DNA of 64,000 bases. Origin: an uncultured Opitutales bacterium. GTDB lineage: Bacteria > Verrucomicrobiota > Verrucomicrobiia > Opitutales > JABDGR01. Made by a program: the position numbers and the translations under genes. Position 1 is the stretch's first letter; every line of letters begins with the position of its first letter. The stretch covers positions 83,557 to 147,556 of the forward strand of contig CAZLRH010000009.1 of assembly GCA_964562015.1 (NCBI GenBank). Direction: 5' to 3'. Below the pieces are notes generated by a model. The model ran no database searches, was not told the origin of the DNA, and saw only the letters and a program-made list of their open reading frames with translations. This document shows, piece after piece, positions 3,093 to 56,026 of this stretch.

Positions 3093-4604
3093 CTACAATT
3101 GCAGTTGGTCAAGGACTTCCTGAATTTGCCGTTTGGCGGCGGGATTGCCAATGATGATGAGTATGCGGCCGGTGTCGTTTTGATCGATCGTTAACATTTC
3201 AATCTGTTGCATGAGGCCGGAATCTTGCAACCCTGCGACCATCTTATCCGCACTACTGAAGGGAAAAGGAAAGCTCATGTATTGCAACGGCGGGGCGGAG
3301 GGGTCGGCGTCAATGCTGATGTTATTTCCCAGGAGGGCGAATTTGTACCCGAGCGGGCGAAGCACGACTTCATACACCGTTTTCCAATCCACGTGGTGAA
3401 GAGTAACGGACGTGAGGCCCGCCAGCGCCGGTGGAAAATCAACCGTGAGGTTCGCCGCGGCGGCGGTGTCGCGCAATACCGTGGGTATGTCGGCATTGGC
3501 ATAGTCCACCAAAGGAAATAGCAGCGGACGTGGTTGGGTGGGGCGGATATAAGCGCCCGGTGCCGTGGGGAGGCGGCCAGTCATGGAAGGCACGGGCGTA
3601 AAATTTCCAGTCGCTGGATCGAGGCGCGACCAAGGGATGGCGGTATTTCCCGGCGTAGTATCGGTCGTTGCAGATGCAGGAGATGACGTGGGTGGAGCGA
3701 TGCGGGTTGAGGTGCTTGCTGGAGCGTTTGCCGTTAAAGTTGACGGGACTGGTACGGGCGGCGGTGTCTGCGGGGTTGAATCTGAAGCCCCCACCGAAAC
3801 CGGCGGGCTAGGGGGCAGTTGCTGCTTGACCAAGAGCGGAGATGGAGGGCGAAAGATGAGAGTTATCCCGAGGGCGACCAAGGCCAGCACGGTCGCGATA
3901 ATGAGAGTGAGTTTGGAGGAAATCATTGAGGTGAGTGGAGAAAAGGTCAAAGGAGCCACGATGGCCGCCGGGGCCGCCATGGCGGTGGCCGAGATGGACG
4001 TCACCAAGCCGGAGGGCACTGTCGTTTTGGCTCCAACATCGAGCGAGGTGGCTAGCAGCGCAGTGGAAAGAGTGAGGCCGCGTCGGGAAAGATGTGCGCG
4101 CATTTTTTCGAGTGCGCGGGCCACTCGTTTCTGCGCCGCCGCCTCGCTCAAGGCCAGGGCGCGGCCAGTTTCCTGCAGACTGCGGCCGTCAAAGAAGCGC
4201 AATAAAAGGGCGTCCTGGTCCACGCGCTTGAGGCGGCCCAAGGCATCGTCGAGCAAAGGGGAGAGATTATCCCAGCGGGTGGCCTGATCGTTTGTTTGTT
4301 CGGCGAGATTCATGGCTTGGGTTTCCCGTTGGCGTCGGCGATGCTCGCCCCGTTGGAGGTGGAACACTTCGCGCTGGGTGGTCCGGTACAGCCAGCCCGG
4401 CAGCGTCTGGCAGCCGCGCAAGCGGGCGGCTTGGCACGAAAGTTGAATAAAGACATTTTGGGCCACGTCCTGGGCGGCGGATGGCTGTTGCAGCATCCGC
4501 AGCGCCGTCCCGTAGACCAGCGGCAAATGCCGGTGTACCAATTCCCTAAAGGCCGATTCCGATTTTTCCTCGGCGTATTTTCTCAATAATTCGGCGTCTT
4601 CCAT
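3093..4604 (-). CDS. ECF sigma-70 factor fused to a TM helix, Pro/Thr linker and STN + secretin-N-like periplasmic domains
   Basis: Sigma2 (DAELLRKY..AFRELVHRHLPLVYGTALR..AQDVAQNVF) and sigma4 (LLLRFFDGRSLQETG..AAQKRVARALEK). TM at about aa 232-250. C-terminus resembles STN (ADIPTVLRDTA..VTLHHVDWKTVYEVVLRPLGY..GNNISI) and a NolW-like domain (LIIIGNPAAKRQIQEVLDQL). Confidence 0.85.
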   Translation of the reverse strand: MEDAELLRKYAEEKSESAFRELVHRHLPLVYGTALRMLQQPSAAQDVAQNVFIQLSCQAARLRGCQTLPGWLYRTTQREVFHLQRGEHRRRQRETQAMNLAEQTNDQATRWDNLSPLLDDALGRLKRVDQDALLLRFFDGRSLQETGRALALSEAAAQKRVARALEKMRAHLSRRGLTLSTALLATSLDVGAKTTVPSGLVTSISATAMAAPAAIVAPLTFSPLTSMISSKLTLIIATVLALVALGITLIFRPPSPLLVKQQLPPSPPVSVGASDSTPQTPPPVPVPSTLTANAPASTSTRIAPPTSSPASATTDTTPGNTAIPWSRLDPATGNFTPVPSMTGRLPTAPGAYIRPTQPRPLLFPLVDYANADIPTVLRDTAAAANLTVDFPPALAGLTSVTLHHVDWKTVYEVVLRPLGYKFALLGNNISIDADPSAPPLQYMSFPFPFSSADKMVAGLQDSGLMQQIEMLTIDQNDTGRILIIIGNPAAKRQIQEVLDQLQL

Positions 4605-4611
4605 GGGGGCG

Positions 4612-4649
4612 TTTATTATAATAAGCCCGCCGCCCGCGGAAATAAGACA
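4612..4649 (-). promoter_or_regulatory. Putative ECF-type promoter of the 3093-4604 gene
   Basis: Coding strand TGTC-N15-GCGGG-CTTATTATAATAAA, 45 nt before the ATG. The same layout occurs before the other two ECF paralogs. Confidence 0.55.
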
Positions 4650-4699
4650 AAAATCTTCTTTATTCTGGAGATGAGGGATGCCGCCGGCGCGAAATCGTC

Positions 4700-4738
4700 A
4701 AAAAAAAAATCTGCCGAACCCAAACGGGTTCGGCAGAT
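4700..4738 (-). terminator. Rho-independent terminator after the 4768-6264 gene
   Basis: Perfect 13-bp stem ATCTGCCGAACCC-aaac-GGGTTCGGCAGAT next to a 10-A run (U-tract on the minus strand). Confidence 0.85.
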
Positions 4739-4767
4739 GAGGCCAAGTAAGGAACTCGGCGCGAGGG

Positions 4768-6264
4768 TTACGGCGTCTGGTCCGACGACCTGAAGGTCAC
4801 AATCTGCCCGGGGCCGCCTGGCGTGGGAAACGAGCCTGGAGTTGAGCCCGCCGGCAGGGTCTGCGTGGTGATGACGCCGTCTTTGTTCGTCGTCACCGTG
4901 ATGGTGCCATCGGGATTTTTCACGCTTTTGCTGCTGAACTTGCTGGTCGTGAAGACACCGCTCGCTGTGCCCGCCGGATTGGCCAGCATAATCGTCCCGC
5001 TGGGACCGTTGCTGACGGCGCTGCCGGACGAGAAAGTGCCGGGATTGCCACTGCTGCCGCTGATGACCACGGTGGCTCCGCCATTGCTGGAACTCGTGGT
5101 GAAGGTCCCCGAAGCGGGAACGTTGACCGTGCGCGTGGTGCTGACGCCATTTTCCGTTGTGGTGAGGGTTGTGGTTCCTTCCGCCTCTGTCTGGAGGCTT
5201 TGACTGGAAAAATCGAGGGTTCCCTCAGTCGAGGCAGGATTCAAAACGAGCACGCCCTCGGTGACCATGGTTGCAGTCCCGGAATAATCAGGGGAAGGAA
5301 CATAAGCGGAAGCCGTTTCTGTTGCTGAAACCGAAGCCTCGGTTGCGTCAGGGACATTATTGACCGCAGCGGTGACCGGCGCCGCGACTGGGGCCGCCAC
5401 CCGCGGGCCGGCCTGGCGAACAGCCGCAGATTCGGGTGCGGGGGACACCGAGGCGCGGGATTGGATGGCCGGCGGGAGGGCGCCGGATGTGGACGGTTGA
5501 TGCGGCCAAGCGTAGGCGGCAAAACCGGCGACCGCCAAAGTGGCGAGCGAAGCGAGGGCGATTTTTGAGGTAAACATGGATTTAAGGGAGGTTAGAGAAA
5601 GACTCGTGGCTGCGCCTGCGCCGCTCAGCGCCGTGGCGGAAACTTTGGCCGCCAGCCCGAACGGGGCCGGCACGGCGGCGTTGGTATCGAGCGTGGTGGC
5701 GAGCAGGGCCGTGGAAAGCGTGAGCCCCCGTTTCGTCAAAAATCCGCGCAATTTATCCAACGCGCGGGCGACCCGCTTTTGGGCGGTGTCGTCGCTGAGG
5801 CCAAGTTCACGGCCAATGCACTGAAAATCCTGTTGCTGCAAATAACGCAGCACGATGGCGTCGCGGTCCGTGGCATTGAGGCCGTTGAGCGCTTCATCGA
5901 GCACCGGCGCAATGTTTTCCCAGGCAGTGGCGCGGCCGGACTTTTCTTCGAGAGCGTTGATTTCCATAAAAATCCGGTCGCGGGAGCGCCGCCGTTGTTC
6001 CGTACGCACCGCCTTCGCTGCCGTGAAGCAGGTGTGCCGGTGCAGCCAGCCGCCCAAGATTAAGTCGGCAGGCAGGGATCCCGCCTTGCGCGCCAAATCG
6101 GTGAACACGATTTGCGTAACGTCTTGCGCGAGATGGGTGTCGCCGGCGACCAGCCGGCGGGCCGTGGCATGGACGAGCCCGACGTGACGCTCTACCAATT
6201 CCCGAAAGGCTTGGTCGGAGCCTTCACGGGCGTATTGGCGCAGAAGTTGGGTGTCGTCGTTCAT
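4768..6264 (-). CDS. ECF sigma-70 factor fused to a TM helix and a Ser/Thr/Gly-rich extracytoplasmic tail
   Basis: MNDDTQLLRQY..AFRELVERHVGLVHATARR..LAQDVTQIVF and sigma4 (RDAIVLRY..TAQKRVARALDKLR). TM at about aa 235-252. Start placed at ATG 6264 by alignment with the paralogs. Confidence 0.85.
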   Translation of the reverse strand: MNDDTQLLRQYAREGSDQAFRELVERHVGLVHATARRLVAGDTHLAQDVTQIVFTDLARKAGSLPADLILGGWLHRHTCFTAAKAVRTEQRRRSRDRIFMEINALEEKSGRATAWENIAPVLDEALNGLNATDRDAIVLRYLQQQDFQCIGRELGLSDDTAQKRVARALDKLRGFLTKRGLTLSTALLATTLDTNAAVPAPFGLAAKVSATALSGAGAATSLSLTSLKSMFTSKIALASLATLAVAGFAAYAWPHQPSTSGALPPAIQSRASVSPAPESAAVRQAGPRVAAPVAAPVTAAVNNVPDATEASVSATETASAYVPSPDYSGTATMVTEGVLVLNPASTEGTLDFSSQSLQTEAEGTTTLTTTENGVSTTRTVNVPASGTFTTSSSNGGATVVISGSSGNPGTFSSGSAVSNGPSGTIMLANPAGTASGVFTTSKFSSKSVKNPDGTITVTTNKDGVITTQTLPAGSTPGSFPTPGGPGQIVTFRSSDQTP

Positions 6265-6270
6265 CGGCTG

Positions 6271-6308
6271 GTTTATATAATAGAACCCGCCGCAAGGCGA
6301 TTCCGACA
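6271..6308 (-). promoter_or_regulatory. Putative ECF-type promoter of the 4768-6264 gene
   Basis: Coding strand TGTC-N14-GCGGG-TTCTATTATATAAA, 44 nt before the ATG. Confidence 0.55.
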
Positions 6309-6447
6309 AGAAATCGCCCCAAACCAGGGACGCCGCCGGCGGCGACCCTACGGTCCAAACGACATAATTTGTAGGCGCCGCTGGCGACGGCCCATGGTCA
6401 CGGCTTCTGTTTCAAAATATAAACCATCCCAGCCTTCCGAGTCAGGC

Positions 6448-7956
6448 TTATCCGCCCACGCCGCCGCGGCCACCACCACCGCCGCCGAAGCCGCCGCCGT
6501 TGCCCGTGCCGCCACGATTGGCGCCCGCCGCCGGTTGGGCTGGAGCCGCGCCTGCGCCAGCATTCGGATCCCACGGGGCCAGGCGGTTGGCATTATTGAC
6601 AAAACCCGCGCCCATGCGGTTGAGGCGGTTAAGGGGACGCGTGTTGGCCGGATCCAGATTGTTGACCCAATCTGAAATCGCCTGTTTTTCATCCGCGGAA
6701 ATGTTGGGGTTCGCCTGCACGAATTTAAGCCCGCTTTGCGGGTCGTTCGCGATTTGGCGCGCAATGACGGAATCAATGATGCGCCCGGTGAGATTGGGGT
6801 CGGAAACGTGGGACGTGGCCCACATCACTGCGGTTTCCGGGTCCACGCGCCCGGCGCTGGTGGCGAAATTCACGACGGCCGGATCAGTGGCGGGAGAGGC
6901 GGGCAGGGCGCCCAGAATTTGCGCGGCGCTATTGAGGTCGTAACGCGTCAACGTGCGAATGGAATTCGCCAGCGCCGTGCCGGGCTGGTCGGTGCCGTTT
7001 TGGAGCGAAGCTTGGTCGAACTGGACGGCCCAGGCCGCGGCGGCCATCGGGTCGTTGCGCGTCCACGCCGCGACGACCTGGTTGCCGAGTTGCGCGCGTT
7101 GGGCCGGGTCGGTCAGGGTGGCCACGTAGTTCGCCGCGTCTGTCGGCGAATTTTGGGCCCAGCGGTTGAGCAACTGGGTGGAGGCGGCGGTCTTGGCGTC
7201 GTCGGGCAGCGTGGAGAACAATTTCACGGCGTCCTCGAATTTGCCGTCATCGGCGAGCGCGTTCGCCACGGCCTGGTAACTCTGGCGCTGCAAATTGCGG
7301 TCCGCCAAGGTCGAGTTGCCAAAGCTGGCGACGATGTCCAGCGCGCCCTGCGGATCCGTCGCGGCCATGCCGCCGAGCGCGGCCCGGTAACGCGCATTGA
7401 TTTGCTGCGGCGGCAGCGCTTCTTTTTCCTGGCCCAGCCAGGCCAGGGCGGCCTTCGGGTCATCCTTGGCCCACGACTTCAAGGCCGTGGCTACGCCCGC
7501 CTCGCGGGCCGACGGGTTGGTGATGTTGCTATGGGCGAGGAGGAAAGTAGACGGCGCTTTTTCGGCCCAGGAGCTGACGAGGGCGGCGAACATGGCGTCG
7601 CGCTGCATCCCGGCCGGCATGTCTTGCAGCGATTGGATGAATTCGGCGTAGTCGTTCGGGTCCACGCTGTCCGCCCAGAGCTTCAGCAACGCCGGATCCA
7701 GCTTGTTCTTATTCGCCAGCATTTCCTGAAAGGTCGGCAGCTTGCCCACCAAGCCGATGGGCGAGCCATCCGCTCCCGGCGCGCCATTGCCGCCGATGCT
7801 CATGGTCGCGCCATGGTCGGTGGAAGACTTGCCGGGTTTGCCGGTGGCGACTTTGCCGGTTTCCGGCGCGTGGTGGGAGCCGGCCCAATAGGAAAGGACG
7901 CTGCTGGCGGCCCAGACGGCGGCGAAGCCGAGGTATTTGAGGGATTTCGAATTCAT
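6448..7956 (-). CDS. Membrane-anchored or secreted helical-repeat protein (W-x3-DP-xAAxxW repeats) with a Gly-rich C-terminus
   Basis: N-terminal hydrophobic segment (MNSKSLKYLGFAAVWAASSVLSYWAG) and about 9 repeats of ~33 aa (e.g. WAKDDPKAALAWL, WTRNDPMAAAAWA). Confidence 0.8.
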   Translation of the reverse strand: MNSKSLKYLGFAAVWAASSVLSYWAGSHHAPETGKVATGKPGKSSTDHGATMSIGGNGAPGADGSPIGLVGKLPTFQEMLANKNKLDPALLKLWADSVDPNDYAEFIQSLQDMPAGMQRDAMFAALVSSWAEKAPSTFLLAHSNITNPSAREAGVATALKSWAKDDPKAALAWLGQEKEALPPQQINARYRAALGGMAATDPQGALDIVASFGNSTLADRNLQRQSYQAVANALADDGKFEDAVKLFSTLPDDAKTAASTQLLNRWAQNSPTDAANYVATLTDPAQRAQLGNQVVAAWTRNDPMAAAAWAVQFDQASLQNGTDQPGTALANSIRTLTRYDLNSAAQILGALPASPATDPAVVNFATSAGRVDPETAVMWATSHVSDPNLTGRIIDSVIARQIANDPQSGLKFVQANPNISADEKQAISDWVNNLDPANTRPLNRLNRMGAGFVNNANRLAPWDPNAGAGAAPAQPAAGANRGGTGNGGGFGGGGGGRGGVGG

Positions 7957-8174
7957 GGGGTACGTGGGGATGCTGCGATGGACGAGACCGGGCAAAGAAC
8001 AAAACCGAGGTGCGGCGCAGGGTGACGCCGTCAGGGGAATCTAGGTGGTGGGCGATGGGGCTGTCAACCGGTCGTTTGTCGGCTAGAAACCGGGCGATTT
8101 CGTCTCAATAAAAAATAATGAAAGAATATTTTATCCTTGATAAAAGGTCTCACCTCCGGCTCGCTCTTTCGAAA

Positions 8175-9287
8175 ATGAGCTTTGTTTTTTGGCGTCGCCT
8201 ATTGCTCAACATTGCCCTCAGTGGAGGTGCGCTGGCCGCGCTCTCGCCTGGGGTTAGGGCAGTCGTTTCCTACACCCTGACGGATTTGGGGTCGTTGGAC
8301 AATTCCTCGAACCTCTATTCCAGTTTTGCTACTGGCATTAATGCGTCGGGCGAGGTGTCGGGTTATTCCTACACCTCGGTGAGTGCTGGAAGTCACGCCT
8401 TTCTCTATTCCGGCGGCGTGATGTCCGATATCGGCGGGGGGAATAGTGTCGCCAATGGCATCAACGATTCCGGTCAAGTCGTCGGCTACATCACGGGCAT
8501 AGATGGGTTTCATCATGCTTTTCTCTATTCCGCTGGCAATTTAACTGACCTCAGTCCGCAAGTCGGGGTCGACACGATCGCTTATGCCATCAACAACAGC
8601 GGCCAAGTCGTTGGCAAAGGCCCGACTTTTTCCAATTCCTTTTTTTATTCCGGCGGGGTCGGGACTCTCTTCAATACGCTGGGGGCCGCGCGCGCCCTTA
8701 ACGATTCTGGAAATTTCGCCGGCGGGGGCGCCAATTTTGCCTATGTGGTCAATAGTGGAATAATGACGAATTTCGGCACCCTGGCGGGCGGAGGGCCCGC
8801 CCATGGTTACGGCATGAATAATCAAGGCGACGTGGTGGGTGCTGCGGATTTCAGCTTTCCGAGCGCCTACGACTTGATCGTGTATCACAATGGGACGCTT
8901 TTGGATCTGGGCCGCGCTGCTCCCACGGCCGATACCTATGGTTATGATATAAATGCCACGGGCCAAATTGTCGGCGAGTACAGATACACTTCGATGAGCG
9001 GTTTGGTTGACCAAGGTTTCCTTTATGAGAATGGGTCGTTCACCGACATGGATAGCTTACCCATTATCAATCTTGGGACCTGGCACGACATTTTCGCGAC
9101 AGCCATCAATGACAACGGCCAGATCGCGGGCTGGGGTACGGACGGAACCGGACGGACCCATGCCCTCCTTATTTCGCCGGTGCCTGAACCGGCGGCGTTT
9201 GCCTTTGGGGTAACGCTGACGGCCGGGCTGGTTGCATTGAGCAGACGGTATTATTCTCGCGCGGTGACCCGGCGGACTAGTCGTTGA
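8175..9287 (+). CDS. PEP-CTERM surface protein with HAF-type extracellular repeats
   Basis: Signal peptide, repeats such as AxxINxSGxVxG..HAFLYSGGxMxD(L)G, and a C-terminal VPEP motif followed by a TM helix and an Arg-rich tail. Confidence 0.88.
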   Translation: MSFVFWRRLLLNIALSGGALAALSPGVRAVVSYTLTDLGSLDNSSNLYSSFATGINASGEVSGYSYTSVSAGSHAFLYSGGVMSDIGGGNSVANGINDSGQVVGYITGIDGFHHAFLYSAGNLTDLSPQVGVDTIAYAINNSGQVVGKGPTFSNSFFYSGGVGTLFNTLGAARALNDSGNFAGGGANFAYVVNSGIMTNFGTLAGGGPAHGYGMNNQGDVVGAADFSFPSAYDLIVYHNGTLLDLGRAAPTADTYGYDINATGQIVGEYRYTSMSGLVDQGFLYENGSFTDMDSLPIINLGTWHDIFATAINDNGQIAGWGTDGTGRTHALLISPVPEPAAFAFGVTLTAGLVALSRRYYSRAVTRRTSR

Positions 9288-9356
9288 TTTTAGGTGGACG
9301 CTGTTTCGCAAAGAATCTATTTTAAGGCTAGACGGTCCATAAACAGGAAACATGTC

Positions 9357-10346
9357 ATGCCGGCCTTGATTCGCAATGAACTCGTGGAGTCCCTGGTGGG
9401 CCGGCTGTTTGCGGCCTACCGCATCACCGACGTGGAGCAGGTGGCCGCGGCCATGGCCGCATTGATTGAGGGCCGCATCAAAAGCATTACCGCGCGCACG
9501 CCGTGGAATCGGCGCAAGGCCGCCGAACTAACGGACGTGGCGGACCGGTTTGTCCTCGCGCTGGACCAGCGCCTGGCGAAGGAAGGCCCAGCGCACCGCG
9601 CGCTCCTGCTGCCGCGGCGCAAGGCCTTGTCCGCGCAGCAATTTTACCTGAGCGAATGGGCCGCCGGCGGAAACTACGCGCAGGGTCGTTGGCTCGACGC
9701 CGGCCAGTGGGCCGCGCATTTCAGCACCGTGCGCATGACGGTGCCGTTGTTGCTGATCCTCGCCTTTTTTGTCGTGGTGGAATTGGGCGGTGGGCGCCTG
9801 AGGCCGGAATTTTTCTGGGCGGATGTGCTGCTCTGGCTGCTGGCGTGGGGGTTTATGGAAATGTATACATTTCAAACTTTCAAAATGGTTTTCCAGCAAC
9901 GCCGGTTTGACGCGCTGCTGCGGGGAGATCTCGCGCGCTTTGTGGAATGCCAGCGGCAGATTGCCTCTGAGGACGGACCGTGGTTCGCGCTGAATCGGGA
10001 ATTTCCCATCTGGTGCGTGCGCGGGCTCGCGGTGCTGGCCCTGTTGTTTCTATTGCTAAAGGGTGACCCGCTGAACGGGCTCGCTGCCAGCGAATCCGCG
10101 ACCTTGGCCGCCGCCCTGGCCGCCCAAGACACCACTTTGCAACGCCATGGTGAGGCGGTTGCTGAACTCACCGCCAAACTGGACGACCTCGCCGCTGATT
10201 TGCCGGCCGAGGCGGTGCCGGATGACGATTTCCCCGCCTACGATTTTGCAAGCTACGGCGTCGCAGTCCCGAACATGCGCGTTGTCGCTGGTGGCAGTTC
10301 GGGTGGGAGTTATACCATTGGACGTGTGACCGTGACCGTGCGGTAG
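9357..10346 (+). CDS. Hypothetical membrane protein (about 3 TM segments)
   Basis: Long ORF with hydrophobic stretches (VPLLLILAFFVVV, VLLWLLAWGFM, LAVLALLFLLL). No family recognised. Confidence 0.6.
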   Translation: MPALIRNELVESLVGRLFAAYRITDVEQVAAAMAALIEGRIKSITARTPWNRRKAAELTDVADRFVLALDQRLAKEGPAHRALLLPRRKALSAQQFYLSEWAAGGNYAQGRWLDAGQWAAHFSTVRMTVPLLLILAFFVVVELGGGRLRPEFFWADVLLWLLAWGFMEMYTFQTFKMVFQQRRFDALLRGDLARFVECQRQIASEDGPWFALNREFPIWCVRGLAVLALLFLLLKGDPLNGLAASESATLAAALAAQDTTLQRHGEAVAELTAKLDDLAADLPAEAVPDDDFPAYDFASYGVAVPNMRVVAGGSSGGSYTIGRVTVTVR

Positions 10347-10406
10347 GGTGGGCGCAAGGGTTCGTCCACGGATTGATTTTAGACCTAATCTAAATCGGCC
10401 AGCCCT

Positions 10407-12341
10407 TCACTGGCCGATATTCGCATGGCCCAAGATTTGTTTTTTTGCGTCGTCGGACAAACTCGTCTGATTCAGCCAGCTTGTCGCTGCCGTTGGATCA
10501 GTTCTCGTCCAATCGCGAATGACCCGGTCAATGGTGTTGGTCCGTGTCTGTTCATCGGTAAGAGACTCGGCCCAAGGCGCTGCCGCCGCTGGATTTATCG
10601 GGGACAGCACACTGACATAAGCTCTGACCGCGTTCTGTTGGGCAAAACTGGGCGGCAATGTTTTGAGCCATTCCTCAGCGGCGGCAGGGTCGGCATCCAC
10701 CCATTTGTGCATAACTCCCAGCGCGGGGCCAAATTGATTTTGGCCGGCATTGGGCAGCGTGGCGATAAAGCCCATCGCCTGGGTTGGTTCCATCACTGGG
10801 AGGATCCCGGTCATAGCCGCGGATTTGTCGGAGTCGTTTGGCAACGCATTGGCCCAATTAAACGCCGCCTGGGCGTCGGATTTGCTCAGAGTGGCACCAA
10901 GCGACATCAGTGACATCGTACGTTGGTCGCCCGCCGGCAGCGCAAGTGTTTGTTTAATCGCCGCATGGGGGTCCTTTTTCGCCCAGCTGGCCATGAGGGA
11001 GGCCAAAGTTACGGGCGACGCATCCGGCCCGGCTAATTGCACCGCAACTTCCGGGTTGGTCTGGGCCAAGATATCCAAGAATTGCGACATCATCTCGTCG
11101 CGAGCCGAGCCGTGTGGAAGCTGCTGCACCCAGGCCCAGGCTGTGCTTGGATCTTTTTGCGCCCATGCTTCAAGAATCTGGCGCACTGCGATTTGGCGGG
11201 CCCGGGTTCCTTCAATTGTTTGTGCATATGCAAGTGCGGCGGCCGGGTCTGTGCGCACCCAGCGGTCGAGGATTTCCCTCATCAACAAGTCGCGTTCGGA
11301 GCCGCCTTCATGGTCGGCGTAGGCCAGCGCCGCGGCCATGCTTTGATTATCCAGCTGGTCGAGGAATTGGTAGAAAGCCTGCTTCGATGCGTCCGAATAC
11401 GCGCCGCTTTTCATCTCCACAATGACTTCCGCCAGCGCCGCCTGAATTTCGTCGAGGTTGGATGCCTCGGCGACCGATGCACTTTGTCCCATGGATGCGG
11501 ATGGCGCCGACCGGGGCCCGAGCTTCTTGACGGTGGAATTCCGCTCGTCGAGCCGCGCCTGCAGTTGGGCAATCTCGCGGTTTTGGGAAACGATGAAGGC
11601 GGCGGCCGAGACGGCCACGGCGGCGACAAGGATGGTTTTGATTTTCATGGTCATAAAAAAGATTTTCCAAACGGCGTGCGCCAATCCGCCCGCGCTTGTC
11701 GAGCCGGCCAAGGAGGCGCCTGTAACCTTGGCCGTTAAACCGGCCGGCAAGGGCGTGGCAGCCTGAACGGTAATCGCTGTGGCCAGGAGAGCCCCCGTGG
11801 TCGTCACGCCCTGCCGGGCGAAATGCCGGCGCATTTTTTCCAAGGCGCGTTCAACTCGCTTGTTTACCGTATTTTCATCCAGATGGAGAATCGCGGCCAC
11901 TTCGCGGTAGCTTTTGCCTTGGAAAAAGCGCAAAAGCACGGCATCGCGATCAGTTTCTCCGAGTTGGCCCACCGCCTCATCCAGAACGGGCCGCAGTTGT
12001 TCCAAACTTATTTCCTGAACTGGGTTGGGTTCATGCATGGCGACAGCTTTTTGTTCACGCACCTGGCGGCGCCATTGGCTACGCAGCGTTTTATGGGAGA
12101 GATAACGCGTGCTGGTGTGCAGCCATCCCGCCAAAGTTTCATGCCCGGACAACACACGGGCCTTCCGTGCCAAGTCGGTGAACACTCCTTGCGCTACGTC
12201 TTCGGCCAGATGAGCGTCACCAGCCAACAGACGGAAGGCGGTGCTGTAGACCAGGCGCAGGTAGCGTTGCACCACTTCGGCAAAGGCGGCCTCGTCGCCG
12301 GTTTCGGCATACTCGCGCAAGAGCTCGTGGTCTGGAGTCAT
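10407..12341 (-). CDS. ECF sigma-70 factor fused to a TM helix and W-DP helical repeats
   Basis: MTPDHELLREY..AFAEVVQRYLRLVYSTAFR..LAEDVAQGVF and sigma4 (RDAVLLRFFQGKSYREVA..KRVERALEKMRR). TM at about aa 236-252, then about 9-10 W-x3-DP-xAAxxW repeats. Confidence 0.88.
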   Translation of the reverse strand: MTPDHELLREYAETGDEAAFAEVVQRYLRLVYSTAFRLLAGDAHLAEDVAQGVFTDLARKARVLSGHETLAGWLHTSTRYLSHKTLRSQWRRQVREQKAVAMHEPNPVQEISLEQLRPVLDEAVGQLGETDRDAVLLRFFQGKSYREVAAILHLDENTVNKRVERALEKMRRHFARQGVTTTGALLATAITVQAATPLPAGLTAKVTGASLAGSTSAGGLAHAVWKIFFMTMKIKTILVAAVAVSAAAFIVSQNREIAQLQARLDERNSTVKKLGPRSAPSASMGQSASVAEASNLDEIQAALAEVIVEMKSGAYSDASKQAFYQFLDQLDNQSMAAALAYADHEGGSERDLLMREILDRWVRTDPAAALAYAQTIEGTRARQIAVRQILEAWAQKDPSTAWAWVQQLPHGSARDEMMSQFLDILAQTNPEVAVQLAGPDASPVTLASLMASWAKKDPHAAIKQTLALPAGDQRTMSLMSLGATLSKSDAQAAFNWANALPNDSDKSAAMTGILPVMEPTQAMGFIATLPNAGQNQFGPALGVMHKWVDADPAAAEEWLKTLPPSFAQQNAVRAYVSVLSPINPAAAAPWAESLTDEQTRTNTIDRVIRDWTRTDPTAATSWLNQTSLSDDAKKQILGHANIGQ

Positions 12342-12350
12342 TTGGTGTTT

Positions 12351-12384
12351 TCATAGTAACACCCGCAGGCACGGAAAACTGACA
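12351..12384 (-). promoter_or_regulatory. Putative ECF-type promoter of the 10407-12341 gene
   Basis: Coding strand TGTC-N14-GCGGG-TGTTACTATGA, 43 nt before the ATG. Confidence 0.55.
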
Positions 12385-20976: not shown

Positions 20977-22887
20977 TTACTGATTCGCAATGTTCTGCGC
21001 GGTCTTCAGCAAGTCCGCGCGCAGGGATTCCGGAATCTGCGCCGACTGAATCGCGGCGATCGCGGCGGGCGCGTCTTTCTTGGCCCACTGCGTGGTCACC
21101 GCGCGCAGGGTCGTGGTGCGATTGGCGCTGTCGTTGATGGAGCCGGCCCAGTTGAAGGCCGAGGGCAAATCATTCGGGCCTTCGGTGGCGATGAGTTTTT
21201 GCACGGCGTTGTCGCGGCCCTCGCCCGCGGGCAACGTGTTAATCCATTCGGAAGCCGCGAGCGGATCCTGCTTGAGGTAACTGTCGGCGACCTTGGCGAT
21301 GGCGTCGGACTGAATTTTCGGGTCGGTCAAGCTGCCCAGCAGCGCCGCGGCCTGCGCCGGATCCTGGGCGCTCCACGTGCTGATGATGTTGCCGAGCGTG
21401 CGGTTGCGGTTGTCGCCGGCGGGCAAGTCGGCGGCGTAGTTCCAGGCCGCTTGCGGATCGACACTGGCCACGGCACTGATGGCGCCGCGCACCGCCGAGT
21501 CCTGCCCGGTGCCCGCGGGCAGCGCTTCCGCCCACGCGAGGGCGCCCTTGGGGTCGGCGTTGGCCCAATTGGTGGCAACCTGGCCGGTCAGTTTGCTGTA
21601 ATTGGGATCGTTCCCCATCGTTTGAATATAGGCGGCGGAACCGGCGGGATCGCTGGAGATCCAGGTGCCGAGCACATTTTGCATGGCGGCCTGGCGCACA
21701 GCGGCATTGTCGGACGGCAGGGATTGCGCCCAACTGAGCGCGGCTTGAATATCCTGACGGGCCCAGGCGCTGGCCAATTCCGGCACGCCCTTGTCGCGAA
21801 TGGCGGTGTCACTCATGTTCATGAGATAAGTGGCGGTGCCGGCGGGATCGACCTGGCTCATTTGCATCAACGCAGTGGTCATGGCCTTGTCGTGCGTCTG
21901 GCCGGTGGCCACCGTATCGATCCAGGCGAGCGTGGCGGCCGGGTCTTTTTGCGCCCAGGTTTGGGCGATGGTGCCGATCAAGCTGTCGCGGCGGTCGCCA
22001 TTGGGCAGGGTGCCCACATAAGCGGTGGCCGCCTGCGGATCCTGAGTGGCGAGCGAAGTCAAAACGCTACTCACCGCACTGTTGCGGGCGCTGGCGATGG
22101 GAAGATTGCCGGCCCAGGCGAGCGCAGCCTGCGGGTCTTCCTGCGCCCAGGCGCTGGCGACATTTTGCAGGGCCTGATTGCGGGCCTGGCTGGCCGGGAG
22201 GTCGAGCGCGGCGGCGGCGGCGGCCGTGGAGTCCTGTTTGGCCCAGGCGGAGAAGACACTGCCATAAAGCTGGGCCGACTGCTGGCCCACGGGCAATTTA
22301 CGCACGGTGTCGAGCGCACCCGTCGGGTCTTTCATGGCCATGTTGGACAGCACGTTTTGCTGGATGGCGCTGCGTATGCCTGCGTTTTCAATTTTGTCGA
22401 GGCTCGCGAGTGCCGCGTTCGGATCCTTGGCCGACCAGGAATCAAAAACCAGGTAAAGGTCGGTGGTGCGTTCGTTGGCATTGGGTTGTCCTTTGGCCCA
22501 ATCCAGCGCGGCCGCCGGATCCGCGTCGGCCCAGCGCGCGGCGATGATGGCTTTGGCGAGCTGGTTGTCCGAGGTCGCGGGCATTTTGGCGAGCGAGTCG
22601 AGCAGCGAGTGGGCGCCCGCGGGGTCGAGATTGCTGGCAAAATCGAGCAAATCCCGATAGCGGGCGACGATACCGGGCGCCGTCAGGATTTTGGTCAGCT
22701 TGGATTGCTGGGAAGCGACGGAGCCGGAAGCCGTGGTTTTAGCGGTGGCCTTTTCCGCCGCGCCGGCCGGGCCGTGGCTCTGGGCCGCAGCGAGTTCCTC
22801 GCCCAAGCGGGAATTTTGACGATACTGCCAGCCGATGACGGCGAGGGCGGCGATGATGAGCGCAGTGAGCAGGGAATTTGATTTCAT
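20977..22887 (-). CDS. Membrane-anchored W-DP helical-repeat protein (about 17 repeats)
   Basis: N-terminal TM (LLTALIIAALAVIGWQY) followed by ~33-aa repeats such as WADADPAAALDWA, WAQEDPQAALAWA, WANADPKGALAWA. Confidence 0.85.
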   Translation of the reverse strand: MKSNSLLTALIIAALAVIGWQYRQNSRLGEELAAAQSHGPAGAAEKATAKTTASGSVASQQSKLTKILTAPGIVARYRDLLDFASNLDPAGAHSLLDSLAKMPATSDNQLAKAIIAARWADADPAAALDWAKGQPNANERTTDLYLVFDSWSAKDPNAALASLDKIENAGIRSAIQQNVLSNMAMKDPTGALDTVRKLPVGQQSAQLYGSVFSAWAKQDSTAAAAAALDLPASQARNQALQNVASAWAQEDPQAALAWAGNLPIASARNSAVSSVLTSLATQDPQAATAYVGTLPNGDRRDSLIGTIAQTWAQKDPAATLAWIDTVATGQTHDKAMTTALMQMSQVDPAGTATYLMNMSDTAIRDKGVPELASAWARQDIQAALSWAQSLPSDNAAVRQAAMQNVLGTWISSDPAGSAAYIQTMGNDPNYSKLTGQVATNWANADPKGALAWAEALPAGTGQDSAVRGAISAVASVDPQAAWNYAADLPAGDNRNRTLGNIISTWSAQDPAQAAALLGSLTDPKIQSDAIAKVADSYLKQDPLAASEWINTLPAGEGRDNAVQKLIATEGPNDLPSAFNWAGSINDSANRTTTLRAVTTQWAKKDAPAAIAAIQSAQIPESLRADLLKTAQNIANQ

Positions 22888-24239: not shown

Positions 24240-25916
24240 TCAGTTCTTTGCGCCCGCGCGGCGGCCTTTCCACGCCTGCCACAGGGGCCACAGCACGAAC
24301 AGCATCGGCAGCCAGCAAAGCACGAGGAACCAGCGCGAGCCGGCCAAGCCATCCTGCGCCACTTTGAAAAACGTCCGCCCTTGAATAAATGCTTTGGCGG
24401 CTTCGTCATTGGCATGGAGCGCGGAGGCCGCGCCCCCGAGCGCGAATTGTTTCGCGACCGCCGCTCCGCCGCAGGCCGCCTCCCACGCCAGGGCGCAACC
24501 GCCAAACGCAAAGTTGCCCACGGCCACTCCACCCATCGCCCACCAGCCGGCGGCCACGCCGCCGCCCGCCCAAATTCCCAGCGCGGCCCCGCCAACGGCC
24601 AGCAAGCCAAAGGCCGCGCCGCCAAAGCTAATCAACCCCACGGTCATTCCACCGAAACTTAACGGTGCGATCGCCACGCCGCCTGCAGCGCACAATCCTC
24701 CAATGGCGAAATCTCCGCCCGCAATCCAGCCGACCGCCGGGCGCAACTTTTCCTCGTCCCGCCGGCCGGCGCGGATATGCACCAGAGGCAAACCCAGAAA
24801 ACTCCAAGCACTGCGGTATTCTTTGACCGGCCAGAAATCGAAACGCACTTTGCTCGGTTCGACGGGTGTGGGTCCCACATTTTGTTCCGCTCGCAATTGC
24901 CGCAATCGTTGATTGGAACGCAGCGCGAACGGGACCAGCAGCGCCACATACGCGGCCCAAATTCCCGCAAACCCCAGCACCGTCAGCAACGGATTAACCG
25001 CCCACAAATCTTCGAAGAAAATACTCCAAAGGGCGGTCAAGACCACGACCACGGCCACCAGCGCCACGATGGTCCAGGCATTTTTCTTGATCATTTTTTT
25101 CTCTTCGGCGGAGCGCGCGAACTTGAGTTGCACACTGACGCCGACCCACCCGCCCACGATTCCCAGCACCGGGCCCAGCACCGTGGCCGCGAGTCCCGCC
25201 CAGCCCAGGCCGCCGGCCATCGCTCCGCCCTTGGCCATGCCGGCGCCCATGGCGCCAATTTTTCCCGACACAGCCAGCATCGGCAGCGCGGCCTGTACGC
25301 TGAGCGTAAAAGCAGTCCCCGGTCCGCTGCGACCCAGTGCCGTTTCCACAAAGGCGAGCATGCGCTCCTGCAACATTTTCCGCCCGCGGGACAGGCGCTG
25401 CATGACCGCGTCCTCGCTTAGTTCCAAGGCTTCAGCTACGCGTGCCACCGACTGTTCGCCGCGATAATACAACACCAGGGGCTCGCGATAGAGTTCCGGC
25501 AGTTGCCCGAGTTCGCGCCAGAGCAGGGCGGATTCCTCGCGGCTGATGGCTTGGGCCGCGGGCGGTGGTTCCGACGCGGGCAGATTTTCTGCGGCCTCCA
25601 GCGTTGCGGCGGCATGCGACGGCTCGCGTCCCAACTGCCGCCGGTCTTGGTTAATAGTGTGGCGCGCAATGCCGCACAACCAGGAGCGAAGTTTGGCGGG
25701 CTCGCGCAGTTCGCCCAGGTGCTGCCAGGCCGCGATGAATGTCTTCTGCGCCAGGTCTTCGCTTTGGCTTACGTTGCCGGTGGCGCTGTAAGCCAGGGCG
25801 CAAACGAGCGCCTGGTAGCGCGCGACGATTTGCCCGAAGGCCTCGCGCTGGCCTTCGAGGCTTTGGGCCACGAGCGCGGCGTCTGGGGCGGGTGCGATGG
25901 ATTCAGTGGTTGGCAT
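24240..25916 (-). CDS. ECF sigma-70 factor fused to a polytopic membrane domain with Gly-rich hydrophobic repeats
   Basis: DAALVAQSLEGQREAFGQIVARYQ..SEDLAQKTF..LRSWLCGIARH; LPELYREPLVLYY..QRLSRGRKML; then several TMs and EYRS..FLGLPLVHI..GWIAGGD..GG repeats. Start ATG 25916. Confidence 0.85.
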   Translation of the reverse strand: MPTTESIAPAPDAALVAQSLEGQREAFGQIVARYQALVCALAYSATGNVSQSEDLAQKTFIAAWQHLGELREPAKLRSWLCGIARHTINQDRRQLGREPSHAAATLEAAENLPASEPPPAAQAISREESALLWRELGQLPELYREPLVLYYRGEQSVARVAEALELSEDAVMQRLSRGRKMLQERMLAFVETALGRSGPGTAFTLSVQAALPMLAVSGKIGAMGAGMAKGGAMAGGLGWAGLAATVLGPVLGIVGGWVGVSVQLKFARSAEEKKMIKKNAWTIVALVAVVVVLTALWSIFFEDLWAVNPLLTVLGFAGIWAAYVALLVPFALRSNQRLRQLRAEQNVGPTPVEPSKVRFDFWPVKEYRSAWSFLGLPLVHIRAGRRDEEKLRPAVGWIAGGDFAIGGLCAAGGVAIAPLSFGGMTVGLISFGGAAFGLLAVGGAALGIWAGGGVAAGWWAMGGVAVGNFAFGGCALAWEAACGGAAVAKQFALGGAASALHANDEAAKAFIQGRTFFKVAQDGLAGSRWFLVLCWLPMLFVLWPLWQAWKGRRAGAKN

Positions 25917-26010
25917 GTCACCCCTTAAGTGGCGCAAACGGACGCCAACCTGACCGGAAATTTTGCGCCTGCCGATTCGGCTGCAAATCCGCGGCGAAGT
26001 TCGCCCGCAT

Positions 26011-55411: not shown

Positions 55412-55943
55412 TTACTTTGTGGTGGCCGTGCCGTCCGGCTGCGCCAGTCGAGCGAGCTCCGCGCGGGCGAGTTGGTATTCATCATAAGTTTGTTTGCCGG
55501 TCCCGACGCACTTTTGAAAATAATCCCGGGCGGCGGTTTGCTCATGCTTGGCCAGACACAGCATGCCGAGATGGTAATAGGCTTCGCAGGTTTGGCCTTG
55601 GACCGTCAAGGAGTCGCCCGTTTCCGCCGCTTGCAGGAGCGTGGCGGCGTCAATCTCGCCCGCCAAATACCGGCCCAGGGTCTTGTTCCAGCCATCCTTC
55701 CACGTCGCGACCTGCGCGCCAAAGCCGGGCGACGCCGGCTCCGTCCAAGTCGTTGGCCTGGAGCTTGCGACCGCCGCTGGCCACGAGTTGGTCGGCCGTG
55801 GAAGCCGCAGCGGCCTGCAGGATGTCGTCCGTCGTTTGGGCGGCGCAGATATCCGGCTGCGAGACGGCGAACGCGATCAGAAAAAGGCCAAGGAGCCAGG
55901 GCGATCTGCCGACCCAAGGAAGAAGCTTTTTGAGCATGTCCAT
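55412..55943 (-). pseudogene. Disrupted TPR/NlpI-like protein (internal deletion with frameshift)
   Basis: Frame A gives a signal peptide and the start of a TPR (ASGGRKLQANDLDGA). Frame B, offset by 1 nt, gives WKDGWNKTLGRYLAGEIDAATLL..CEAYYHLGM..ARDYFQKCV.TG..YDEYQLARAEL, the typical C-terminal cap. No TPR array lies between them. Confidence 0.7.
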
Positions 55944-56026
55944 AAAGACCAATAGCCGGAACCAGCAAAATCTCACAAAAAAGGTCTCCTTCTCTATTCC
56001 CACTCCCAGCTTCCCGGGTCAAGCCT

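Follow-up and report, generated by a model that had tools for sequence, protein, structure and literature searches.

The window analysed here is a stretch of 64,000 nucleotides (nt) from an uncultured Opitutales bacterium of the phylum Verrucomicrobiota (GenBank assembly GCA_964562015.1, contig CAZLRH010000009.1, positions 83,557 to 147,556), and it carries three genes for extracytoplasmic function (ECF) sigma factors fused to a membrane-spanning C-terminal extension. Each of the three is preceded by the same two-part signal, which, judging from sequence comparison, is very probably the promoter through which these membrane-anchored sigma factors activate their own expression. We place a probability of about 0.82 on the fuller reading, in which the signal would serve ECF (group 4) sigma factors fused to such an extension, in a family found across the Verrucomicrobiota, as their cognate and autoregulatory promoter. 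A preliminary description of the window had proposed an autoregulatory promoter consensus for this ECF group, and the proposal is supported by the presence of the motif before 13 of 14 paralogs in this genome and before at least 78 of 80 loci in other species, by its near-exclusive placement before family genes, and by the co-variation of promoter bases with residues of the sigma factor encoded downstream.

All three proteins carry Sigma70_r2 and Sigma70_r4_2 domains in their first ~175 residues, followed by a C-terminal extension of 320-470 residues. The generic superfamily model TIGR02937 is the only NCBIfam/TIGRFAM ECF model above its curated cut-off in all three, and none of the named ECF subfamilies in that collection has a model above cut-off for the three window proteins. 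The genes, their predicted promoter elements and an adjoining terminator are as follows.

3093..4604, minus strand: ECF sigma fusion 1, 503 amino acids, sigma domain at about residues 1-175, ATG at 4604.
4640..4649, minus strand: predicted -35 element of fusion 1 (TGTCTTATTT, read 4649 to 4640), block A of the family motif.
4620..4631, minus strand: GGCGGG and the hexamer in the -10 position, CTTATT, of fusion 1, after an 8-nt spacer from the -35 block; matrix score 18.7.
4709..4738, minus strand: intrinsic terminator after fusion 2, a 13-bp stem with a T run.
4768..6264, minus strand: ECF sigma fusion 2, 498 amino acids, ATG at 6264.
6299..6308, minus strand: predicted -35 element of fusion 2 (TGTCGGAATC).
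6280..6291, minus strand: GGCGGG and hexamer TTCTAT of fusion 2, 7-nt spacer; score 26.0, the top match of the genome.
10407..12341, minus strand: ECF sigma fusion 3, 644 amino acids, ATG at 12341.
12375..12384, minus strand: predicted -35 element of fusion 3 (TGTCAGTTTT).
12356..12367, minus strand: TGCGGG and hexamer TGTTAC of fusion 3, 7-nt spacer; score 25.0.

The layout first described for these sites is present as stated: TGTC stands at 4649-4646, 6308-6305 and 12384-12381 on the minus strand, its T lying 45, 44 and 43 nt before the respective ATGs, and at all three sites it is followed by GCGGG and then by a T/A-rich stretch. By count alone this minimal pattern is not above chance, as the window has 2 occurrences of TGTC-N14-GCGGG where 1.3 are expected, and 37 of 100 shuffled sequences contain at least that many. 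What gives the three sites significance is instead the wider motif, which keeps a fixed place before homologous genes. Between gene 2 and the promoter of fusion 1 lies the strong terminator (4738-4709), which isolates that promoter, and a TATAAT at 4620-4615 overlaps the hexamer of fusion 1.

The genome to which the window belongs (4.43 Mb in 67 contigs, 60.9% G+C) encodes 14 close paralogs of the sigma domain (E value of 2e-35 or better). When their upstream regions are aligned on the start codon, 13 of them share a longer motif 40-60 nt before the start, so that the motif is enriched among paralog upstream regions, as the proposed promoter consensus calls for. In this genome it takes the form tttc-TTTGTs-cGgTTTT, then an unconserved spacer, gGcGGG and a T/A-rich block. 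The block positions each carry 1.3-2.4 bits of information and the spacer positions 0.0-0.6, among genes whose sigma domains are only ~35-50% identical.

A weight matrix built from other species only was used to scan both strands of this genome. At a score of at least 20 there were 10 matches against 0.67 in shuffled sequence, and at a score of at least 22 there were 7 against 0.33; ECF paralogs account for 8 of the top 10. Lowering the score to 15 gave 40 matches, 11 of which are ECF paralogs with an ATG 3-17 nt downstream, while most others lie inside long open reading frames (ORFs). The motif-bearing paralogs score 16-26 in 11 of 13 cases, and the other two (9.8 and 10.5) still exceed the maximum of 8.5 reached by 1500 random 100-mers, for which the mean was -13.2, the 95% point -1.9 and the 99% point 2.3. 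The fourteenth paralog (contig C15, 64475-62117, minus strand, outside the window) has no motif of its own and is the third gene behind a TGGCGGATTT-type site. Two small genes with signal-peptide-like N-termini (192 and 159 amino acids, counted from their ATGs) lie between this variant site and the paralog, and the whole looks like an operon.

Two looser versions of the motif had also been suggested within the window, and the matrix does not uphold either. The upstream region of the ECF gene at 25916 scores -14.2, against the random mean of -13.2, and that of the stand-alone repeat gene at 22887 scores -0.8, at about the 95th percentile of random sequence.

To follow the motif beyond this genome, the three window sigma domains were scanned against one genome per species, which gave 80 loci, most of them labelled as Verrucomicrobiota metagenome-assembled genomes (Limisphaerales, Opitutales, Pedosphaera and others). 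Block A, TGTCCGATTT, was matched at 7 or more of its 10 positions within 65 nt of the assigned start in 76 of the 80. With the start placed correctly, L019 and L030, two of the four misses, reach scores of 30.2 and 29.1, which brings the count to at least 78; the remaining two are L040 (score 3.5, a TGTT variant) and L011 (score 1.7). The second block in other species is GGCGG-N-TAyTAT, and the overall consensus is TGTCsGATTT, 7 (sometimes 8) nt, GGCGG, one base and a TAyTAT-like hexamer. In five other genomes, each with 3 to 21 family matches (E value of 1e-15 or better), 42 of 49 further paralog loci carry the motif at the same place with a score of at least 10.

Over 136 sites, the first block reads T132 G135 T129 C109 (C77/G37) G109 (A75/G33) T128 T131 T119, and the second G100 G113 C115 G131 G115 N T88 (A78/G42) Y T95 (A79/T49) (T66/A51). 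The two blocks are separated by a spacer of 7 nt at 95 sites and of 8 nt at 35, together 130 of the 136. Placement is similarly constrained: in the five other whole genomes a strict pattern with at most 3 mismatches gave 14 matches, against 3 for a reversed control, and 10 of these sit 11-23 nt before a family gene, 1 before a small membrane-protein ORF and 3 elsewhere.

The evidence that ties the motif to the sigma factors themselves comes from co-variation. Each promoter was paired with the sigma domain encoded downstream, and mutual information was calculated for every variable base against every protein column, with residues numbered as in the protein of 3093-4604. In the first 87 pairs, base 4 of the -35 block was best predicted by residue 159, in the recognition helix of region 4.2, and residue 82, in region 2.4, was the best predictor of the base immediately 5' of the hexamer. 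The associations recurred in 42 new loci, where K159 went with C in 28 of 28 cases, M159 with G or T in 10 of 10, and K82 with G in 7 of 7. For the combined set (n = 135), residue 159 predicts base 4 in every case of the three residues tabulated (K with C, 102/102; M with G or T, 23/23; Q with A, 2/2), with a mutual information of 0.80 of 0.98 bits and 0.38 for the next best column. Residue 82 is associated with the base 5' of the hexamer (Q with C, 20/20; D with C, 11/12; K with G, 21/22; N mostly with T or A), and residue 158 is associated with base 7 of the -35 block (Q with A, 60/73; R with G, 22/35). In L087 and L088, which are near-identical paralogs of one genome, K/M and C/G differ together.

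Shared ancestry was taken into account by building a tree without the recognition helix and comparing phylogenetically independent pairs on supported branches. Base 4 changed at least 15 times on this tree and residue 159 at least 18 times. The independent pairs for residue 159 and base 4 gave 7.4 changes in the same direction, 0 opposite and 0.6 unchanged (p ~0.016); those for C against Q/D82 gave 7.0 concordant and 0 discordant changes (p ~0.016). For base 5 = C and R/K158, p was ~0.008, and base 7 against residue 158 was weaker (p 0.03-0.06). We set aside the associations that failed the tree-aware test, namely the second hexamer base with residues 54 and 79 (p 0.125 and 0.375), base 5 = A with N158 (p 0.5) and, despite its raw agreement in 21 of 22, base -13 = G with K82 (p 0.125).

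The residues so identified fall at positions with a known role. In a family profile alignment to AlgU (6in7_B), residues 82, 158 and 159 lie on its Asn, Arg and Ser, which are numbered one above Asn84, Arg171 and Ser172 of E. coli RpoE. In the passages of Todor et al. 2020 (PMC7776599) on autoregulatory ECF promoters and their specificity code, RpoE Asn84 sets -13/-12, Arg171 sets -31 and Ser172 sets -34; the bases of the window family likewise co-vary with the residues aligned to these three, and motif bases 4 and 7 are 3 nt apart, like -34 and -31. Because the variable promoter bases track residues of the sigma factor encoded just downstream, a non-cognate reader is disfavoured, and each sigma factor very probably reads its own promoter.

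The most serious alternative, which we nevertheless consider improbable, is that the motif is a promoter read by another sigma factor, either one master ECF or the housekeeping sigma aided by an activator, and that the family genes form one regulon. Nearly all strong sites in this genome precede ECF fusion genes, as a dedicated family regulator would give, and the TGT, TTT and GGCGG parts are nearly invariant across paralogs. However, such a reader offers no account of the strict K-to-C and M-to-G/T correspondences or of at least 15 changes on the tree, and the co-variation holds even between L087 and L088. The motif is also unlike tRNA-type promoters. TTGMC occurs upstream of 32 of 44 stand-alone tRNA genes, 2 of 13 ECF genes and in 24% of random 100-mers, whereas TGTBNNNTTT is found upstream of 9 of 13 ECF genes, 1 of 44 stand-alone tRNA genes and in 1.4% of random 100-mers. 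Within 4560-4800 there were 0 sites for a sigma-70-like promoter (TTGACA-like -35, 16-18 nt spacer, TATAAT-like -10), and the distance from TGTCTT to TATAAT in gene 1 is 23 nt. A housekeeping sigma-70/sigma-A promoter was rejected on these grounds, together with the scarcity of TTGMC before ECF genes.

As for what the housekeeping promoter of this organism looks like, the sequences upstream of stand-alone tRNA genes suggest cTTGAC or cTTGCC, ~17 nt, and TTTAAG or TTAAnT. An ECF fusion in the window that is unrelated to the family (24240-25916) has CTTAAG exactly 7 nt before its ATG (25917-25960, minus strand), which resembles the -10 of the tRNA promoters and gives it a leaderless-looking layout.

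Less probable still is that the two blocks are the operator of a DNA-binding repressor or activator overlapping an unrelated -10 element. The GGCGG and T-rich blocks could be protein-binding sites, and a sigma-70-like -35 is absent from 4560-4800; yet the motif is non-palindromic, its 7-8 nt spacer and its distance to the start codon are held fixed, its variable bases co-vary with sigma residues at known DNA-reading positions, and a conserved neighbouring regulator gene was not seen in the window. That the similarity is a functionless relic of a duplication that copied upstream DNA is hardly credible. Paralogy, and the side-by-side position of two of the three window copies, would fit such an origin, but the divergence of the sigma domains, the confinement of information to two blocks around an unconserved spacer and the retention of those blocks in 136 sites from many species all speak against it.

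Several points weigh against a cognate autoregulatory promoter. Only 8-9 well-supported independent pairs underlie the tree-aware tests (p ~0.016-0.03, and 0.03-0.06 for residue 158), and the co-varying pairs came from screening many column pairs, a concern that is reduced, though not removed, by the replication set and by the match to positions named beforehand in the literature. With base 4 set to -34 and the base preceding the hexamer to -13, the spacing falls 2 nt short of that given by the RpoE numbering. The transfer of that numbering also passes through AlgU, which we take to be the RpoE orthologue with an offset of one. The window hexamers CTTATT, TTCTAT and TGTTAC are poor, and better TA-rich hexamers lie 3-5 nt downstream; their register was assigned from the family alignment and from the K82/G rule, which genes 2 and 3 obey. 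The regulon of a sigma factor would be expected to include target genes, but those seen in this genome are scarce, amounting to one weak non-sigma candidate (55977-55949) and the C15 operon. Finally, none of 401 sampled Verrucomicrobiota genomes contained the strict pattern in its exact form, though it matches 14 of the 80 family loci. Either the canonical form is restricted to certain lineages or the sample missed the lineages that carry it; the blank reflects the strictness of the pattern and the choice of sampled genomes.

In the mechanism that we favor, sigma region 4.2 would read the -35 element TGTCsGATTT, and region 2.4 would read the base just 5' of the TAyTAT-like -10 hexamer, itself preceded by the almost invariant GGCGG. 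The co-variation sets the register, with the base before the hexamer at -13 and the hexamer at -12 to -7. As the promoter lies directly before the sigma gene, a sigma domain released from the membrane would raise its own synthesis, in a positive autoregulation; by analogy with IutY (discussed below), we infer that the release would be proteolytic. The residues that follow the -13 specificity residue are nearly invariant among 138 sequences (85, R124/K10; 89, R134; 90, R133; 93, R124; 94, E137), and they could form the reading head for the invariant GGCGG.

Transcripts would be expected to start ~6-8 nt after the hexamer, which would make for leaderless mRNAs in most family members. With start codons assigned by rule in 136 loci (ATG in 100, GTG in 32, TTG in 4), the first in-frame start follows the end of the hexamer at 7-9 nt in 83 cases, at 13-17 nt in 32 and at more than 17 nt in 10, and an in-frame stop bars a longer ORF in 87. 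Judged by distance alone, the mRNAs of the 7-9-nt majority class would be leaderless or nearly so, a leaderless mRNA being one whose start codon coincides with the transcription start or falls within 1-3 nt of it. Window genes 1, 2 and 3 have 15, 15 and 14 nt between hexamer and ATG (ATAATAAACGCCCCC, TATATAAACCAGCCG and TATGAAAACACCAA), and no Shine-Dalgarno-like run is present in these stretches; for them we predict short leaders of ~7-9 nt and not leaderless mRNA. These distances agree with the very short leaders lacking a Shine-Dalgarno sequence that had been proposed at the outset.

In leaderless mRNAs of Actinobacteria and Deinococcus, the -10 hexamer stands 6-7 nt before the ATG or GTG. 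The family resembles this layout in its prevailing distance of 7-9 nt, in the common use of GTG and in the frequent in-frame stop just upstream. It differs in that the layout is tied to an alternative-sigma promoter, and in the 14-15 nt of the three window genes. Within the limited literature collection that was searched, we found nothing relevant on the promoter motif or on leaderless transcription in Verrucomicrobia.

The pairing of residues and bases also bears on whether the paralogs activate one another's promoters, a possibility raised in the preliminary description. Among the eleven tabulated paralogs of this genome, five have K159 with C at -35 base 4 (four TGTC and one TGAC), and the three window genes are among these; in another five M159 is paired with TGTG or TGTT, and the last has V159 together with TGTC. 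At -13, G is common to all three window genes, whose residue 82 is K or H. Because they have the K159/C and K-or-H82/G determinants in common, cross-activation among these three is plausible. The paralogs at large split into at least two -35 classes, and on the basis of their determinants the K/TGTC class and the M/TGTG-or-TGTT class should be insulated from each other.

A broader and more tentative view, toward which we lean slightly less than away, is that repeated single-residue rewiring of promoter specificity could have left 13-21 paralogs per genome in mutually insulated, self-amplifying, leaderless circuits, with GGCGG serving as an ECF-type 'extended -10' read by R85, R89, R90 and R93 of the helix behind the specificity residue, a type of element not known to us from earlier descriptions. 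On this view, the changes on the tree, at least 15 in number, would have replaced K by M at the Ser172(RpoE) position in step with C by G/T at -34, and swaps among N, K, Q and D at the Asn84 position would accompany base changes at -13.

The signal is best placed among the ECF autoregulatory promoters that Casas-Pastor et al. 2021 and Todor et al. 2020 have catalogued, and the datasets of Todor et al. may already contain the family. As in the promoters described in the passages of Todor et al. drawn on here, a bipartite -35/-10 lies directly upstream of the ECF gene; unlike those, it combines TGTCsGATTT with GGCGG-N-TAyTAT, an invariant GGCGG abutting the -10 and a mostly leaderless layout. 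Among the group descriptions in the corresponding passages of Casas-Pastor et al. (PMC7826278), ECF22 has a predicted promoter with -35 TGTGATTTT and -10 GCGAAT(C/A)AT, and ECF250 one with -35 TGTCAC or TGTCCCTTT and -10 GTTATATA. Both share with the window family a TGT-initial, T-rich -35 and an AT-rich -10. Their descriptions, however, give a separate anti-sigma factor at +1 (with 4 transmembrane helices, or with DUF4367/DUF4179) and no fusion, and we treat the two groups as look-alikes in motif only.

A likeness in protein architecture is offered by ECF57, which combines an ECF sigma factor with a membrane-spanning C-terminal extension (~2 transmembrane helices) and belongs to the same Planctomycetes-Verrucomicrobia-Chlamydiae superphylum. 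As described there (PMC7826278), the group is 100% Planctomycetes, has a fully conserved Cys pair in sigma-2 and sigma-4 and has no conserved promoter motif. Membership of the window fusions was rejected, as the three sigma domains share no invariant Cys, their relatives are Verrucomicrobiota and their promoter is conserved. The supplementary text passages of the same source yielded no ECF group that is mainly from Verrucomicrobia.

The sigma/anti-sigma hybrid IutY of Pseudomonas putida is described as activated by regulated proteolysis, with the promoter of the iutA receptor gene as its target (PMC5411451). Like the window fusions, it places a cytosolic ECF domain, one membrane segment and a periplasmic domain in one polypeptide; unlike them, it has a different extracytoplasmic domain, and the passages on IutY in that source do not mention autoregulation.

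That an ECF gene should stand behind its own conserved promoter is otherwise what specialists would expect. What the present case adds is a promoter open to testing, together with a predicted specificity code, for one-component membrane sigma factors that form a large, uncharacterised family in a phylum for which promoter data are almost absent. Natural variation (K/M and N/K/Q/D) supplies ready-made sigma-promoter pairs with which the ECF code could be tested beyond the model phyla and from which orthogonal switches could be drawn, and the leaderless layout would tie alternative-sigma control to translation that is independent of a Shine-Dalgarno sequence.

Non-sigma genes behind the motif are few. 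The window holds one candidate for a further site:

55949..55977, minus strand: candidate site TGTGAGATTT-N7-TCCGGCTATTGG, score 21.8, with a weak -10 block (block B 1.6).

A gap of 5 nt separates it from the ATG of a small downstream ORF whose N-terminus resembles a signal peptide (55650-55943, minus strand). The site is of the TGTG class with C at -13, determinants that fit the M159/D82 paralog at C16:69786. A TPR-like ORF (55412-55666, minus strand) follows the small ORF in another frame, and a frameshift is possible.

In two other species, a small ORF of 65-69 amino acids encoding two hydrophobic helices (MLKWNTILWLAAM...) is preceded by a perfect motif copy of its own and sits just upstream of a motif-bearing ECF gene (L052, 1058-1349; L019, 1151-1432); it could be a co-regulated accessory of the sigma fusion. 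A further copy with 2 mismatches stands 12 nt before a 132-amino-acid ORF without a sigma domain (L081, 128-567; G401:C2:1113727).

Outside the window, this genome also has dense tRNA arrays at C26:43246-45206 (15 genes within 2 kb) and C13:57-386 (5 genes, at the contig start), which have T-rich linkers and stand apart from the scattered tRNA genes.

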